Shown here: positions 1 through 6,581 of the stretch, piece after piece
How positions within the stretch are numbered: position 1 is the stretch's first letter
How the letters are laid out: each line of letters begins with the position of its first letter
NCBI GenBank assembly: GCA_000004695.1
Contig: CH709156.1
Span: 1-6,581 of the forward strand
DNA from: Dictyostelium discoideum
Taxonomy: Eukaryota
Direction: 5' to 3'
DNA: 6,581 nucleotides
Position numbers and translations under genes: made by a program
The notes under the pieces: model-generated
Database searches by the model: none
Told to the model about the DNA's origin: nothing
What the model saw: only the letters and a program-made list of their open reading frames with translations

Positions 1-123
1 AGGTGTACCGAATGGAGCGACATTCACTTGGAAGTTAGATGGAAAGTTGAATACTTTATTCAATTCGGATATCTCATCTTTCTTGAGGATACATTCTTCT
101 TCGACAAGTAAACCTTGATTGAG
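1..123 (-). CDS. Alternate-frame open segment overlapping the 3' end of the 60-398 ORF, translating ...LNQGLLVEEECILKKDEISELNKVFNFPSNFQVNVAPFGTP and running off the window edge. Likely the same gene after a frameshift or unrecognised splice.
   Basis: Manual translation of the minus strand. The frame opens after a TGA at 126-124, has no stop down to base 1 and is not low-complexity. It overlaps the annotated ORF by ~60 nt. Confidence 0.3.
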
Positions 124-398
124 TCAAGAGTAATAATGAGACCTTTGAACGACCACTTCACCAAGTCTGATTCATCTTCACTTTGTTCATTCTCGGTGTC
201 AGAGTTATCATGAGAAGGTTGGCTACGTGAGTTGGTATTAGAAGAGAACATAGGTTCTTTCATGAATCTTGTAAAGGCTAAGGAAAGATTGTTGATTTGA
301 TCCTCCATTGATTTCATTCTTAAATCAAAGGATTCAGCGCTATTAGAGGCAGAGGTACTACTACTTGAGGCATCATTATTATTAACAGTGGTAGACAT
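60..398 (-). CDS. Hypothetical S/N-rich protein, N-terminal segment (112 codons). The reading frame probably continues in another frame toward position 1.
   Basis: ORF track: ATG at 398-396 (minus strand) in an aaaatATG context, S/N-rich low-complexity N-terminus typical of this genome. The stop is TGA at ~62-60, but an alternate minus-strand frame is open from 123 to 1. Confidence 0.4.
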   Translation of the reverse strand: MSTTVNNNDASSSSTSASNSAESFDLRMKSMEDQINNLSLAFTRFMKEPMFSSNTNSRSQPSHDNSDTENEQSEDESDLVKWSFKGLIITLDSIKVYLSKKNVSSRKMRYPN

Positions 399-486
399 AT
401 TTTATTGTTGATATCTAAAATTATAATATGAGAAAAATAATAATATTAAAAATTAATAAAGAGAAATAATTATTTGTATAAAATTT

Positions 487-498
487 GTGTGTGTGTGT
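487..498. repeat. (GT)6 microsatellite
   Basis: tgtgtgtgtgtg read directly. Confidence 0.9.
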
Positions 499-618
499 AT
501 CTTAAATATATATAGGAGGAATTCCCAAATAAAATAAATCAAATTGTTTTAGTTTTTAGTGCCACTATTTATACGTTTTTATTTTCTTAAAAATTTCGCA
601 AAACTCAAAAAAATAAGA

Positions 619-721
619 GTTTTCGACACTTCACAACTTTGTGCATAGTGTCGGTTCGGAATTTTTCAGTTTTTCGACCTTACACAATGATCGCGTCATT
701 GTGCCGGTTCGAAATTTTTAC
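619..721. repeat. Two diverged tandem copies (~50 and ~53 bp) of a GC-richer unit (tttcgac..cacaa..gtgcat..gtg(t/c)cggttcg(g/a)aattttt). Each contains a short internal palindrome (cgacact/agtgtcg; acaatga/tcattgt).
   Basis: Direct comparison of 619-668 with 669-721. Shared blocks are ttttcgac, cacaa, gtgc, cggttcg and aattttt. Confidence 0.6.
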
Positions 722-747
722 TTTTCTTTCGAAAATTTTTTATTCTT

Positions 748-767
748 CGAATGTTCTAGAACATTCT
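748..767. promoter_or_regulatory. Canonical heat-shock element: four contiguous alternating nGAAn/nTTCn pentamers (cGAAtgTTCtaGAAcaTTCt). Also a perfect 18-bp palindrome GAATGTTCTAGAACATTC at 749-766.
   Basis: Read directly. GAA 749-751, TTC 754-756, GAA 759-761 and TTC 764-766 show 2-nt spacing throughout. It lies ~80 bp upstream of the integrase ATG (847) and ~350 bp upstream of the divergent minus-strand ATG (398). Confidence 0.55.
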
Positions 768-820
768 AAAAAATTATCTTAAATATTTGGGAAATTCAAA
801 TAAATAAATGTTATTCATAA

Positions 821-835
821 TATATATATATATAT
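821..835. repeat. (TA)7-8 microsatellite just upstream of the integrase ATG
   Basis: tatatatatatatat read directly. Confidence 0.9.
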
Positions 836-846
836 GATAATATAAA

Positions 847-2298
847 ATGGACTTCTCTCAAATTACTAACTCTCTTAAAAATTCTTTTTGTGATAATAAT
901 TATTTTAATACAGGTATCATTCTTGATGAAATGAAGATCGTTAAGGAAATTTCGAAAGGTTATGAATTGGAAACTAAACTCATTATGTCTGAAGTCATCA
1001 ACGACCAGTATAAGAGCTTAAATATTACATATCAAAATGGTATCAAATGGATCAAGATTGACAATCAACTTAAAATCGTCGTCCCTCAAATTGACGATGT
1101 CATCCATTTAATCATTTCAAGTTATCATGATTCTGCTATTGCTGGACACTGGAGTAATCGTAAAACTTCTGAATTAGTCAAAAGAAATTTCTACTGGTAT
1201 GGAATGATGGAAGATATCCAACTCTACTGCAAGAATTGCAAAGTTTGTCTATGCGCCACAGATGCACACCAAAGAGCCATGGGATTGTACTTGCCATCTC
1301 ATGTACCTGTCAGATGCTTCATGGAAATCAATATGGACTTTATATCCGGGTTGGATGCCTGCACTGTTGATCAAGTTGAGTATACAAGAATATTGGTAGT
1401 AGTTGACCGTCTATCAAAGTTTGTAGTACTCATTCCCATTCCAAATCATACAACGTCAATTCAAGTTATCAACTTTATTCAAGATCAAGTCTTCTTTACG
1501 TTCGGTATGCCATCAGTCATCATCAGCGATAATGATCCTTTGTTCACATCAATACCTTGGAAGAAATGGATACAAGCCAACAATATTACTCACAATACAT
1601 GCCTACCTTACCACCATCAAGGTAATGGTCAAGCTGAAATCATGGTCAGAATTGTCACAAATGCTCTCAGAAAGTGCCTAATCAATTCCAAGTTTGTTTC
1701 TAATCCAGATATATCATCCATTGAGTTAAATAATATTCAAAATGATTGGGTCGGTTACTTGAAAAGTGTACAATTCTGCATCAACAATACTGTTTCTGAA
1801 AGTACTTCATTTACACCATTTCAAGTTCTCACTGGTTCTCATACAAGGTCTCCAATATCATTAATCATGCAATATGAAGACGACAAGTACTCAAGATCTT
1901 TAGGGTTGGACAAGAAGTCGTATTGTGAATTCGTTCAACACAAACTCAATATCCTAGATGTGGTCCAAGATAACCTGACTGATAGTATCGAACGTTCAAG
2001 ACAGCAGTATAATAAGAATAAATCACCTAATATCCTGGTGGAAGGTGATATAGTATATCTTCAAGAACTCAATACTGGTGCGCACCCAATTAGAAAGTTA
2101 GATATCCGAAGGACAGGGCCATATACAGTATGTAAACTCATGGAGAAGGGTAACGTTATGGTCCGTTTGTTCAAGAGTGATGAGGTTAAAGATGAACAAG
2201 TGGTTCACATTTCAAGACTAACTCTGGTTCCTAGTGCTGGTTACATTTCCCACATCGATCAATCTTCTTTTGATAATCCCAATTTAGACGTCGAATGA
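847..2298 (+). CDS. Ty3/gypsy-type retrotransposon integrase (IN) ORF. It is isolated, with no reverse transcriptase or RNase H in frame upstream; a frame-1 stop TAA lies at 838-840.
   Basis: HHCC zinc finger YHDSAIAGH...FYWYGMMEDIQLYCKNCKVC (nt 1126-1239). Catalytic D164 (MDFISGLD, nt 1336-1338), D228 (IISDNDPLFTS, nt 1528-1530) and E264 (YHHQGNGQAE, nt 1636-1638) give exact D,D(35)E spacing. GDIVYLQ motif and GPY/F module RRTGPYTV (nt 2116-2124). Confidence 0.9.
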   Translation: MDFSQITNSLKNSFCDNNYFNTGIILDEMKIVKEISKGYELETKLIMSEVINDQYKSLNITYQNGIKWIKIDNQLKIVVPQIDDVIHLIISSYHDSAIAGHWSNRKTSELVKRNFYWYGMMEDIQLYCKNCKVCLCATDAHQRAMGLYLPSHVPVRCFMEINMDFISGLDACTVDQVEYTRILVVVDRLSKFVVLIPIPNHTTSIQVINFIQDQVFFTFGMPSVIISDNDPLFTSIPWKKWIQANNITHNTCLPYHHQGNGQAEIMVRIVTNALRKCLINSKFVSNPDISSIELNNIQNDWVGYLKSVQFCINNTVSESTSFTPFQVLTGSHTRSPISLIMQYEDDKYSRSLGLDKKSYCEFVQHKLNILDVVQDNLTDSIERSRQQYNKNKSPNILVEGDIVYLQELNTGAHPIRKLDIRRTGPYTVCKLMEKGNVMVRLFKSDEVKDEQVVHISRLTLVPSAGYISHIDQSSFDNPNLDVE

Positions 2299-3199
2299 GT
2301 CAAGAAATCCCGACACGAATGGCCAGGTTAGTCATGGTAATGACACGTCACCATCAGACGTTGATCTTACAAGGGATCAGTCCAGGTCATTACAGTTATC
2401 ATCACCATCATTTTCTGATAATGATAATAATATTATTGATACTAATAATTCATATATAGGTAATGCTGCAGCTCAAGATGATCGATCAATTTCAATTCAT
2501 GTACATGATAAAGATTTAGTTGCCATTGGTCCATCCATAAGTATGGATAATCACTCAATCTCAAGTAATGCTTTACATACTGATAATCATTCAATCAATT
2601 TTGGTATTTCTCATATGGATCAATCTGGTAATAGTTCCACTCAGTTGGAAAAAGAGGGTAGATTATTATCAAATAATAATAACAATTCTAGCAATATAGT
2701 AAATAATAATACATCAGCCCAACATCAATCATCGATTCAAGATATAGATTGGAATAATAATCCGGTAAATAATAAAAATAGTATATCAACAATATCAGAA
2801 CCAATTGGTAGCAATGATTTTAATCAATCAATTCAACAACAGAATAATATCAATCTCAATAAACTAATCAATACAGAATCACTAAAGAATAATATAAAGA
2901 GTAAATCATTTATAAATAGAATCAATCAACTCAAAGAATATGAGACTAGTAGTGAATATGATCGCAAGCCCAATAATAGCAGTAATCAACTAATCACAGA
3001 ACTAATGTTATCACCAATACCACCAAATACATTTACAATAATAAAGAAAAGGACATACAAAATAGTTAATAAGAATAAAACATTTATAGAGTATCTAATT
3101 TCAGTATCAGATTCACTAGCATGGGTATCAGCAGTAACAATGAAAAGACAACATAATCAACAAGAAATCAATTTGAAAATTATATCAAATCAGGACTAG
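2288..3199 (+). pseudogene. +1-frame continuation of the integrase reading frame (open from 2288, overlapping the IN stop at 2296-2298). Asn/Ser-rich low-complexity linker plus a C-terminal chromodomain-like segment (TFTIIKKRTYKIVNKNKTFIEYLISVSDSLAWVSAVTM, nt 3029-3142). The ORF track reports only the ATG-initiated part, 2543-3199.
   Basis: Manual translation: frame 2 has a stop at 2285-2287 and is then open to the TAG at 3197-3199. The chromo-like call rests on a loose match to the chromodomain pattern (hydrophobic-x-V/I-E/K...R...EYL[VI]..., then a W-containing strand). Terminal chromodomains follow the GPY/F module in chromoviruses such as Skipper, which is established knowledge. Confidence 0.45.
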
Positions 3200-3353
3200 A
3201 AAATAAACAATAAAATTCTAAAATTTAAAATAAATAAACAGTATAATTAAATTCGCAGTAAAAATCTACCCCATAAACCTGAAATCAGTATTGGTCTATA
3301 TTGAGAAATAACAAAGAATGAATAAAAGTATAAAAATAGAATTCTTAAAATAG

Positions 3354-3388
3354 GTTGTAACAAGATCTCAAAAAAATATCTTGTTAAT
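3354..3388. repeat. Perfect 9-bp inverted repeat taacaagat / atcttgtta with an 11-nt A-rich loop
   Basis: Read directly. Confidence 0.7.
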
Positions 3389-3411
3389 ACTAATATTTAT
3401 TTAATTTTATG

Positions 3412-3433
3412 AAATGTTCTAAACAGAACATTT
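3412..3433. repeat. Perfect 9-bp inverted repeat aaatgttct / agaacattt with a 4-nt loop (aaac). It shares the AATGTTCT/AGAACATT half-sites with the palindrome at 749-766.
   Basis: Read directly. Confidence 0.7.
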
Positions 3434-3712
3434 AAAAATAACTATTAATATTGAATTGATAATTTAATATTAAATTATTACTAACTTAATTCATTTTAAT
3501 AAATTGTTTCATTTTATATAATAAATTCACTAAACACAACTAAACAATAATTCAAAAATAAATAATAATAATTTAGAATATAGTTTTGTTTCAACATTTT
3601 GTTATGACACATACAATTCAGAAAATAATAATAATTTATTTTATTATTTTGTTTAAAGGGGTTATCTCCCGTTGTAATTAAATTTAATTAATTTTAAATT
3701 AAATTTAATTTT

Positions 3713-3713
<1 letters not shown>

Positions 3714-3750
<37 letters not shown>
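3714..3750. repeat. Poly(A) tract of 37 A residues, preceded by an AT palindromic repeat (aattaaatttaatt x2, 3676-3710)
   Basis: Counted directly. Confidence 0.9.
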
Positions 3751-3755
<5 letters not shown>

Positions 3756-3925
3756 TTGAATTTCACAAAAAGTTTTCATAACAGATATTAGATACCAGAT
3801 ATTAAAAATGCCACACACAAAATCACCAAATAAAATAATAATATAAATTTAAAAATAATTTAATTAGAAGAGAAAATAATAATTAAATTAAAATAATATA
3901 ATATTGTAGTTTAAATTGGATCTAA

Positions 3926-4053
3926 CCCTATCGGCCGAGGTTGGAGTAGTTAATAGATTTGAGTTCGCTCAAATCTAAGGACTATAAAAGGGAACTAGGT
4001 TTCCAATTCAACCTCAGTAGTAAATATATACAAATAATAAAAACACGATAGGG
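3926..4053. ncRNA. Candidate structured element (ncRNA or transposon-terminal structure) in a GC-richer island. Not a tRNA.
   Basis: The outer stem is ccctatcg 3926-3933 pairing with cgataggg 4046-4053. The inner stem is gaggttg 3937-3943 pairing with caacctc 4010-4016. A central perfect 9-bp stem agatttgag/ctcaaatct carries a UUCG tetraloop (3955-3976). A TATA-like ctataaaag lies at 3983-3991. GC content is clearly above the flanking ~90% AT sequence. No tRNA A/B boxes or cloverleaf were found on either strand. Confidence 0.3.
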
Positions 4054-4166
4054 CTACGGTCATTAATTAATTTTGTGTACATTTATTTCTTAAATAATTA
4101 ATCATTTTACTTTAATAATAGAATAAATAAATAATTAAATTTTATTAAATAATTTATTTTAAGAGA

Positions 4167-4508
4167 ATGTCGACTAATAATAACGAAGATATTGATAATT
4201 ATGAATTGCAACAACAGGATAATGAGGAACAACAACAACCACAGGTATCAACATTCAATGAACAGCAACGTCAGATAAGGGAACAGCAGCAGGTAATAGA
4301 TAAACAAAATCAACAACACATTCAATTAATAAATCAACAATCTCAACAACAATTGAATAATCATACGACACCACCATCATCACCCAACATTACAACACCA
4401 ATAACTTCAGCAGCAATAACCAACACAATAAAGATATCATTAGGAAAAATTAACACTGATGATACCGACCACCAGTTGTTACATATCCCTCTAAATATAA
4501 AATTCTAA
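4167..4508 (+). CDS. Small Gln-rich hypothetical protein (113 aa)
   Basis: ORF track: ATG in an aagagaATGtc context, Q/N-rich, P/T-rich C-terminal half. No homology recognised. It may be ORF1 of the downstream transposon-like unit or an independent gene. Confidence 0.35.
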   Translation: MSTNNNEDIDNYELQQQDNEEQQQPQVSTFNEQQRQIREQQQVIDKQNQQHIQLINQQSQQQLNNHTTPPSSPNITTPITSAAITNTIKISLGKINTDDTDHQLLHIPLNIKF

Positions 4509-4557
4509 GTACTAAATCATATATCTACTTGCCATAATGCTAAAATTTGAATAAAAT

Positions 4558-4608
4558 GAAAAAAAAAAAAAAAAAACGTAAAAACTCGAGGAAAAAAAAA
4601 AAAAAAAA
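4558..4608. repeat. Two poly(A) tracts (A19 at 4558-4576 and A17 at 4592-4608) flanking a cgtaaaaactcgagg spacer
   Basis: Counted directly. They explain the artefactual KKKKKK N-terminus of track ORF 4547, which starts at TTG rather than ATG. Confidence 0.85.
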
Positions 4609-4639
4609 TATTATTTTTAATTTCCAGCCAGCAAACAAA

Positions 4640-5476
4640 ATGAATTTAAATAACATATCATGCATTAATTGCAGAGAAAAATTAAAGAATTTTAAAAATA
4701 TTATTATTCATTATATTATGCATAAAAATATATGTCCATTTTGTCTTGCATATTACCGTTCTTATAAACAATTTTATGATGTAAATGGACATTCCAACAT
4801 CAAAAAATGTAAAAATGAACAAAATAAAATTATTACAAATAATCAAAAAAGAGATAGCTTTTATAAAAAATTAATGGATATTACTGGTGAAAAAATAAAA
4901 TATCCAACAAATGATTCAGATGACCCATGTAAACATTTATGTAACCAAAACCAAGATGAAATTTTTTATCAAGAAAATAATGAAAATAATGAAAATAATC
5001 AAACAATTGATAATGAAGAAAATCATGATATAATTGGGTTGGTACATAGTGAAGATGAAAACAATGAAATTAGAATAGATGAAAATGAAGCAAACATTAA
5101 TAATGAAAATAATGAAAATAATGAAAATGAAAATGCTCAAAACGAACCAATAAATAATAATCTAAATAATAATTTAGATAATGAAAAATCAAAAAAAAAA
5201 TTAAATGAAACTGAAATTGAATTTTTAATGTTGGGAATTGAAAACTCAATAAGTTTAAAGCTACTTGAAAAATTTAAAAGTTTTATTGACAAAAATAAAA
5301 CCAATTTAAATCAAATAAGATACACACCTCAATATATGGATAAATTATTTATGGAAGATTTTCAAATAAAAGGAGAAACATTTATAAATAAAAATTATGA
5401 TCACTCAATTTTTTATTTTGAAATTAAAAAAGTATTAGAAACTTTATTAAATAAAAAGCAATTTTTGAAAGAATAG
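4640..5476 (+). CDS. N-terminal part of a TNP2/CACTA-KDZ-like transposase: zinc-finger domain (C-x2-C-x12-H-x3-H at nt 4661-4723, then CPFC) plus an acidic N/E-rich repeat region
   Basis: First in-frame ATG after the poly(A) tracts (4640, MNLNNISCINCREKLKNFKNIIIHYIMHKNICPFC...). Zinc-binding N-termini (Transpos_assoc-type CxxC...CxxC) are characteristic of TNP2-family transposases, which is established knowledge. The stop is at 5474-5476. Confidence 0.55.
   Translation: MNLNNISCINCREKLKNFKNIIIHYIMHKNICPFCLAYYRSYKQFYDVNGHSNIKKCKNEQNKIITNNQKRDSFYKKLMDITGEKIKYPTNDSDDPCKHLCNQNQDEIFYQENNENNENNQTIDNEENHDIIGLVHSEDENNEIRIDENEANINNENNENNENENAQNEPINNNLNNNLDNEKSKKKLNETEIEFLMLGIENSISLKLLEKFKSFIDKNKTNLNQIRYTPQYMDKLFMEDFQIKGETFINKNYDHSIFYFEIKKVLETLLNKKQFLKE
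4973..5135 (+). repeat. Coding trinucleotide/9-mer repeats (AATAATGAA)n encoding (NEN)n in two blocks (~4973-5000 and ~5099-5135)
   Basis: Read directly. They give rise to the spurious antisense ORF 4937-5140. Confidence 0.8.
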
Positions 5477-6581
5477 ATTTTGATACAGATTTTGAAACTG
5501 GAATTTATACAAATTATAAAAGTGGTCAACAATTTAAAGATTTAAAAAATAAAAATAAAAATAAAATTGTTTTACTTAGAATATTCACTGATAGTATGCA
5601 GTGTCAAAACAAGAAAGATTATACTATAATGCTGGATATAGAAAATTATATTGGAAATGAATTTAAAAATAATAAATTATTATTATTTGTAGTACCAAAT
5701 GATTGGTTACTTAATTTTCATCAAACAATTAGGGCATTGTTTTCATCTTTTATTGGTAATGGCTTTAATTTAATTATTGAAAATGAACAAATAGATGTTG
5801 TACCGTTTGGACTGACAATGGATATTCCAGAATTTAGAGCATCCTGTAAACTTAATGGACATAATTCAAATGAATATGCATGTCACACATGTGACAAACC
5901 AAGAGATGGTTTATTTATTTGCAAATCAGGTACATTAAGAAAACAAGAAGATATTACAAATTTTCACTCCACCAAACCAAATTATGCTGAACTAAATGCT
6001 GATATAGAATTAAAAAAAGTATGGGAAAAAAAAGCAAAAGATATTGGTATCAAAGGTGTGGACAGAGGGTGGGTCGAACCTTTGTCCATTAATTATTTAA
6101 AAACACAACCAGACATTTTACATAATATTTTATTAGGTGTCGCACAAAAATGTTTAAATTACATTTTTGATAAATATAAAAATAAAATTGCAAATTTTTT
6201 AAATAATTTAAAAAATGCAAAAATAATAGATAACAAACCAAAACCTTCAATTTCACTATTTGCAAATAAAACAAGGAAAGGAAGAGAGAATAGATCAATA
6301 ATATATTACCTTTTAATATCAATTAAAAATCAAATATCAAATGATGATTTTTTAATTATGGAACAATTCGTAACTATATGTTTTAAATTATATAGTGACT
6401 CTTTTGATGAAAATGATTTAAATTCACTTCAAGTATTAATTGAATCGTTTAATGCAAAAGTAAATTTAATTACTGAAACAGAAATAATGAATTTCCACTT
6501 GTTGTTACATTATCCAATCTATATAAAAAATTGGGGTGCACCAAAATACACTTCAGCTGAAACTTTTGAAGCACAATTATC
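5452..6581 (+). CDS. Catalytic core of a TNP2 / En-Spm(CACTA) / KDZ-Plavaka superfamily DDE transposase. Open frame-1 segment with no stop in 1130 nt, continuing beyond the window.
   Basis: Manual translation with no stop from 5452 to 6581. Motifs: LLRIFTDSMQ (nt 5572-5601; cf. ILSSDKTQL / LSTDGFNPF), VVPNDWLLN (cf. TPYNLPPWL), DIPEFRASCKLNGHNSNEYACHTC (nt 5821-5892; cf. WTINDFPAY...G...CPVC), DILHNILLGV (nt 6112-6141; cf. DVMHIEKNV) and HLLLHYPIYIKNWGAPKYTSAETFEAQL (nt 6496-6579; cf. HLFLHL..EDI..WGP....MYPFERFMG..L). It is not in the ORF track because it has no stop codon in the window. Confidence 0.7.

Follow-up and report, generated by a model that had tools for sequence, protein, structure and literature searches.

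The canonical eukaryotic heat-shock element (HSE) follows the Pelham consensus CTnGAAnnTTCnAG and consists of contiguous inverted nGAAn units bound by trimers of heat-shock factor (HSF), three or more such units being enough for trimer binding. Arabidopsis ONSEN/ATCOPIA78 is a heat-responsive LTR retrotransposon whose LTRs contain HSEs bound by HSFA2. ONSEN shares with DIRS-1 (Tdd-1) of Dictyostelium discoideum the feature that the terminal repeat of a retrotransposon hijacks the host heat-shock response for its own transcription. The two elements differ in architecture: ONSEN combines direct LTRs with a DDE integrase, whereas the repeats of DIRS-1 are inverted, so that the same HSE would drive sense RNA at one end and antisense RNA at the other, feeding RNAi. 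DIRS-1 has been described as an element of ~4.8 kb with inverted repeats that encodes GAG, a tyrosine recombinase, and RT/RNase H/methyltransferase. Its inverted terminal repeats (ITRs) carry an active heat-shock promoter, also in yeast, according to PMC2685390, which cites Zuker 1984 and Cappello 1984, and both ITRs are strong promoters (PMC4482531). Heat or stress induces a 900-nt antisense E1 transcript of DIRS-1, and right LTR–GFP reporters showed activity in one orientation only (PMC3950715).

The DNA considered here, referred to as the window, is a stretch of 6,581 nucleotides (contig CH709156.1, positions 1–6,581) from D. discoideum AX4, and the contig is unplaced and repeat-derived. 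An earlier note, made from the sequence alone, had drawn attention to a palindromic HSE located between two divergent ORFs. With a probability of about 0.9, this motif is the HSE of the DIRS-1 ITRs, the window containing the left end of a degenerate DIRS-1 copy next to an integrase ORF that belongs to a different retrotransposon. A tRNA scan and an Rfam search (E≤1) of the whole window returned no match.

The left end of a DIRS-1 copy

The interval 519–846 (minus strand) corresponds to a complete left ITR (left LTR) of DIRS-1, 328 bp in length, with its outer end at 846 and its inner end at an EcoRI site at 519. Among the DIRS-1 terminal-repeat cloning primers of Friedrich et al. 2015 (PMC4482531, S1 table), the left-LTR forward primer DM_132 matches the window from 846 to 816 over the 31 nt of its DIRS-1 part with 0 mismatches, and the inner primer DM_133 matches partially at 519, having GAATTCCCAAATAAAA in common from the EcoRI site. 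A BLAST comparison of 519–846 with four D. discoideum/cf. discoideum loci, retrieved via ORF1 homologues, revealed >15 copies of 92–94% identity in both orientations, and in the D. discoideum loci these repeats are arranged as inverted pairs. One such pair in locus L004 (10593/10620–15418), which comes from another D. discoideum assembly, encloses ~4.83 kb comprising RVT_1 and Phage_integrase genes, an internal complementary region (ICR), and a 27-nt right extension, which matches the published DIRS-1 length of 4,814 bp; an extension of 27 bp at the right end of DIRS-1 has likewise been published (PMC4482531). The window repeat differs from right ITRs by its left-type end ...TATATGATAATATAAA and by the GAATTCCCAAATAAAA at its inner side.

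The outer boundary of the repeat can be placed to the nucleotide. According to its published composition, the ICR consists of 33 nt complementary to the left LTR and 55 nt of the right LTR (PMC7192593). The outermost 33 nt of the window repeat (814–846, minus strand) are the complement of the initial 33 nt of the ICR, and the BLAST comparison of 519–846 also detected five isolated 33-nt blocks, all 100% identical to 814–846, of which those in L003, L004, and L005 lie ~90–120 bp inside right ITRs. Each ICR block runs directly into TTAAAAATTTAATTTATTAAATTATATTTTA, with which the right repeat ends on its outer side; because the block is joined straight to right-end sequence, the DIRS-1 terminus falls exactly at 846. 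Among the ITR copies compared, the left repeats all terminate in ...GATAATATAAA, followed by unrelated flanks. The orientation of the ITR in L001 might have been taken as a conflict with the inverted-repeat model; this objection was rejected, as L001 1233–1470 is a right ITR that follows ICR-proximal sequence, so that in both cases the repeat has the element interior on the same side. In the same D. cf. discoideum locus, tandem repeats of ~200 bp (units 80–86% identical) at 395–835 and 1826–2445 flank DIRS-1 fragments.

Inward of the ITR, the segment 399–518 (minus strand) aligns contiguously with DIRS-1 copies and represents the DIRS-1 5′ leader, extending from the left ITR to the start codon of ORF1. 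The leftward ORF at 60–398 (minus strand, ATG at 398, 112 aa) is exactly identical to DDB_G0294218 and has 37 homologues, all from D. discoideum or cf. discoideum and present in several copies per contig; residues 1–77 are 87–96% identical to most of them. In tblastn searches with ORF1, residues 1–77 map to 398→168, and residues ~103–142 map to 120→1 in a different frame. DNA alignment with intact ORF1 copies of 180–185 aa revealed that the block 121–167 is replaced and that the frame shifts. The interval 1–398 (minus strand) is thus a degenerate N-terminal part of DIRS-1 ORF1 (GAG), with an ORF running from 398 to 60 and homology resuming in another frame from 120 to 1. The suspicion of the earlier note that the leftward ORF is a DIRS ORF1 relic holds for this frameshifted member of a multi-copy family. 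The AX4 model DDB_G0294218 (UniProt Q54AT7, ‘uncharacterized protein’) is accordingly a frameshifted N-terminal fragment of DIRS-1 GAG, and the sibling models DDB_G0294232, DDB_G0294166, and DDB_G0291211 are DIRS-1 GAG fragments as well.

Window positions 1–846 or 168–846 align contiguously with DIRS-1 copies in L004 and L005 at 90–93% identity. Taken together, the evidence from the ITR, the leader, and ORF1 identifies 1–846 as the left end of a degenerate DIRS-1 element on the minus strand. In comparison with the DIRS-1 reference system, the window copy is degenerate due to the ORF1 frameshift, and the window holds its left 846 bp, namely the left ITR, the leader, and part of ORF1. The interval 399–846, regarded in the earlier note as intergenic spacer and possible DIRS-like terminal-repeat fragment, was to be compared with the DIRS-1 ITR. 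This comparison yielded the exact DM_132 match and the copies of 92–94% identity, and the primer, the ICR, and ORF1 together confirm the assignment to DIRS-1; the term fragment does not apply. As judged from these alignments, 399–846 comprises the 5′ leader of DIRS-1 and a left ITR that is complete at 328 bp, and it is not a shared intergenic spacer.

The heat-shock element within the repeat

A direct reading of the window places cGAAtgTTCtaGAAcaTTCt at 748–767 (strand unassigned), that is, c748, the triplets GAA, TTC, GAA, and TTC separated by tg, ta, and ca, and finally t767. This sequence parses into four contiguous alternating nGAAn/nTTCn pentamers (cGAAt gTTCt aGAAc aTTCt) in correct register, so that an HSE, defined by at least three contiguous inverted in-register nGAAn pentamers, is present with four perfect units. 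The pentamer to its right, aaaaa at 768–772, constitutes an imperfect fifth unit. The central part, GAATGTTCTAGAACATTC (749–766), equals its own reverse complement and, as c748 and t767 are unpaired, the palindrome comprises exactly 18 bp. The GAANNTTCNNGAANNTTC pattern has one exact match in the whole window and was found in 0/200 dinucleotide-preserving shuffles; for the three-unit pattern, the expected count is 0.11. The four-unit HSE and the 18-bp perfect palindrome were thus correctly recognized in the earlier note, whose span of 745–767 is accurate for 748–767 and too wide by the three nucleotides ctt at 745–747, which lie outside the element. Like the HSEs of Drosophila hsp70 promoters, the window element is made of contiguous, perfectly phased nGAAn/nTTCn units; in contrast to the canonical HSE, which is found at a chaperone gene, it resides in a mobile-element repeat of hundreds of copies.

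When the ITR is numbered from its outer end inward, the HSE falls at positions 81–98. Its conservation was assessed in ITR copies from five D. discoideum/cf. discoideum loci (L001–L005, ~85 kb). Perfect HSE matches occur 12 times in these loci, every one inside an ITR copy and at the same position. Four perfect units are retained in 11 of the 15 other ITR copies and three units in a further three; the element is gone from the remaining copy, which is badly decayed. The copy at L005 9879–9556 carries a change in a spacer base that disrupts the palindrome and leaves all four triplets intact. In a D. cf. discoideum ITR that is 76% identical overall and has rearranged central repeats, the segment matching window 714–803 shows 3 differences in ~90 nt. 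Across the other ITR copies, the bins covering 719–758 rank with the best-conserved parts of the repeat and, the two ends aside, conservation reaches its minimum at 619–678. The recurrence of the HSE at one position across ITR copies argues that it is more than a chance match and, on the strength of these alignments, it is considered a built-in part of the DIRS-1 repeat.

ITR copies differ most from one another at 619–720 (minus strand), a region made of two tandem ~50-bp units (TTTTCGAC..CACAA..TTGTG..CGGTTCGrAATTTTT) that both contain an internal dyad. L005 4205–4475 and L001 1233–1470 have lost one unit, and in L003 8302–8561 and L004 17928–18188 CACGTG-bearing sequence takes the place of both. 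The latter two copies form a variant ITR subfamily in which the first GAA of the HSE has become AAA by mutation and both central TCGAC/GGTTCG units are swapped for a unit flanked by CACGTG palindromes (GCCACGTGGCACAATGATC.CGTCATCGT.CCACGTGG).

With respect to organism, repeat, and position in the repeat, the window motif agrees with the heat-shock promoter of the DIRS-1 ITR and is a copy of it, not just a similar element. The earlier note had named such a promoter as a known property of the DIRS-1 terminal repeats, in agreement with PMC2685390; the promoter has been known since 1984, and the window motif does not represent a new one. The 18-mer is inferred to be the motif defined in the 1984 work because it is the only HSE in the repeat; a full-text literature search for the 18-mer or its parts retrieved no paper. 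A TATAAATA box at 566–573 (minus strand, ITR positions 274–281), separated from the upstream HSE by 176 bp and from the inner ITR edge by ~50 bp, points inward towards ORF1 and is the presumed core promoter for the inward (sense) transcript. In a plausible sequence of events, the four inverted nGAAn units would constitute a high-affinity site for HSF trimers, and under heat or other stress the bound factor would raise transcription from the inward core promoter (TATAAATA, 573→566), with a start site near the inner edge of the repeat. The output of the left ITR would be sense DIRS-1 RNA, and that of the right ITR the stress-induced antisense E1 RNA. HSF as the protein that binds the element and TATAAATA as the TATA box used under heat shock are thus presumptive assignments. 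The sense mRNA start has been reported downstream of the HSE position in the left ITR (PMC3950715, PMC7192593).

One feature does not fit this scheme easily. The HSE of hsp70 lies ~15–30 bp from TATA, whereas ~176 bp separate the window HSE from the closest strong TATA box facing inward, a distance beyond that of classic hsp70 promoters. A closer start site, different from the one driven by TATAAATA, may be used under heat shock, and a AATAAAAAAT run just inside the HSE could provide an alternative TATA. The contig is probably heterochromatic, and the window copy of DIRS-1 may be silent in view of its ORF1 frameshift and its location in an unplaced repeat contig.

Another explanation for the palindrome, rated very unlikely, is that its main role lies elsewhere, be it as the binding site of a dimeric protein other than HSF, as a recombinase or cruciform signal, or as a hairpin formed by DIRS-1 RNA or cDNA, the HSE match being incidental. 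The perfect dyad symmetry indeed surpasses what HSF requires, and DIRS-1 replication uses terminal structures, a right-end hairpin having been proposed as a primer (PMC7192593). However, all 12 specified positions of the four-unit HSE are satisfied, which was seen in none of the shuffles, and L005 9879–9556 sacrifices the palindrome and keeps the triplets. Furthermore, the YR acts at the circle junction of the extreme ends (PMC7192593), 80 nt off, the reported sense mRNA start lies downstream of the motif, and heat-shock promoter activity is ascribed to the ITR itself, yeast included (PMC2685390). A real regulatory motif and its host element were recognizable from sequence reading alone. Beyond annotation, the motif has little consequence: the DIRS-1 heat-shock promoter dates from 1984, and DIRS-1 ITRs already serve as strong promoters in Dictyostelium knock-down vectors.

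A Ty3/gypsy element beyond the junction

The DNA to the right of the DIRS-1 terminus is of different origin. By homology, 847–4483 (plus strand) is a 5′-truncated and frameshifted Skipper-type Ty3/gypsy element, of which the 3′ part, cut at 846|847, is present with integrase, C-terminal extension, and 3′ LTR. The integrase ORF (847–2298, plus strand, 483 codons) contains the Pfam domains Integrase_H2C2 and rve. It is followed in the +1 frame by an N-, S-, and Q-rich C-terminal extension of ~300 aa with a chromodomain-like end (2291–3199, plus strand) and by a putative 3′ LTR of ~1.1 kb (~3363–4483, plus strand) delimited by the LTR ends TGTAAC...GTTACA. The closest relative of the integrase ORF, P0001, shares 83% amino acid identity and sits behind gag (zf-CCHC) and RT/RNase H genes in L001; DNA homology with this locus begins at window 843. 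Met847 aligns with the internal residue L344 of P0002, a protein with N-terminal RT_RNaseH domains, and the chromodomain-like segment 2939–3094 aligns with residues 613–664 of the same protein. In relatives, the residue corresponding to Met847 lies inside pol, which makes the integrase ORF a product of truncation. The L001 counterpart of the ~1.1-kb LTR is followed by a TGG primer-binding site.

An assignment of the integrase to the DNA transposons Tdd-4/Tdd-5 was rejected, given that gag and RT-RNaseH genes precede the closest relative and that the LTRs on either side of it come with a TGG primer-binding site. Skipper-1 was discarded as well, because D. discoideum homologues are too few and too distant. 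The neighboring gypsy element is possibly Dd_Skipper-2/DGLT-P. The LTR in the window, ~1.1 kb in length, is far longer than the published LTRs of Dd_Skipper-1 (390 bp), Skipper-2 (208 bp), and DGLT-A (265 bp). A Q-rich ORF of 113 aa (MSTNNNEDIDNYELQQQ...) at 4167–4508 starts inside the putative LTR; the ORFs that begin at the homologous ATG in L001 (6637–6975, 11576–11888) extend beyond the end of the LTR and through the TGG primer-binding site, and the first ORF of the gypsy element hence seems to begin within the LTR. The near-palindrome ATGTTCTaaacAGAACAT at 3413–3432 has half-sites in common with the DIRS-1 HSE. Its candidacy as an HSE was dropped, as its spacing is wrong and it is absent from the homologous LTR of L001 (5950–5965); it is therefore treated as a chance occurrence.

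The two ORFs flanking the spacer, with start codons at 398 (minus strand) and 847 (plus strand), the latter ORF with Integrase_H2C2 and rve domains, do exist as the earlier note had described them. Its proposal that one spacer serves two divergent transposon genes is not supported, in that DIRS-1 ends at 846 and the DNA next to it, which is unrelated, opens with ATG 847 as its first codon. The apparent divergent ORFs are the junction of two mobile elements, and a nested insertion or recombination in repeat-rich DNA is proposed as the origin of 846|847. In contrast to the usual DIRS-1 insertion, for which another DIRS-1 is the commoner target, the outer end of the window copy adjoins a Skipper-type integrase fragment.

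These findings bear on the idea that the HSE forms part of a bidirectional stress-responsive region shared by divergent genes and confers heat inducibility on both the integrase ORF (ATG 847) and the leftward ORF, which must be rated very unlikely. A perfectly palindromic HSE has no orientation, TATA-like runs (TAAATAT at 780–786 and (TA)n at 821–836) lie between the HSE and ATG 847, and the integrase frame is open over 483 codons with intact H2C2 and DDE-core domains. However, a bidirectional promoter implies that both ORFs represent genuine 5′ ends of one locus or element, whereas the ORFs at hand come from different elements joined at 846|847 and pol is 5′-truncated. The status of Met847 as an internal residue and the location of the integrase C-terminal extension in another frame further speak against it, as does the right LTR, which drove GFP in one orientation only (PMC3950715). 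Moreover, this neighbor occurs at none of the other ITR copies examined, whose flanks are unrelated; being unique to the window in this set, the arrangement is no conserved unit. Heat-induced outward read-out into the integrase fragment finds no support either, and the gene so expressed would be broken.

Just as doubtful is the related notion that the palindromic HSE, together with an in-frame ATG right at the end of DIRS-1, yields a heat-inducible outward transcript for a stand-alone integrase (H2C2 plus DDE core) of the truncated Skipper-type element and, more generally, that the ITRs act as dispersed heat-inducible enhancers; if true, hundreds of DIRS-1 ITRs would put neighboring centromeric sequences under stress control. 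The view that low-complexity, A/T-rich Dictyostelium DNA matches the motif by chance, for which the low G+C content of the window (27%) and the spacer (22%) could be cited, can be dismissed in light of the shuffles, none of which contained the four-unit match, and of the retention of at least three units, at an unchanged position, by 14 of the 15 homologous repeats. For annotation, the preferred reading, an ITR-borne HSE abutting a foreign integrase fragment, implies that what look like ‘divergent gene pairs’ in contigs of this kind can be nested mobile-element junctions and that the ‘hypothetical proteins’ DDB_G0294218 and DDB_G0294226 are transposon fragments.

DDB_G0294226, an AX4 hypothetical protein, is 100% identical to the right-hand ORF of the window. 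The region ~4512–6581 belongs to a multi-copy D. discoideum ORF family of ~650 aa with 24 homologues and a cysteine-rich N-terminus, in which Pfam searches, full-length relatives included, identified no domain; the family presumably represents a poorly characterized Dictyostelium DNA transposon. In the window, the ORF is divided by a frameshift near 5455–5476. Runs of A17 and A18 are present at 4561–4608, just upstream of this ORF, and an A run of 37 nt lies in the putative gypsy LTR (3714–3750); these A-rich runs may mark junctions or targets of nested insertions.
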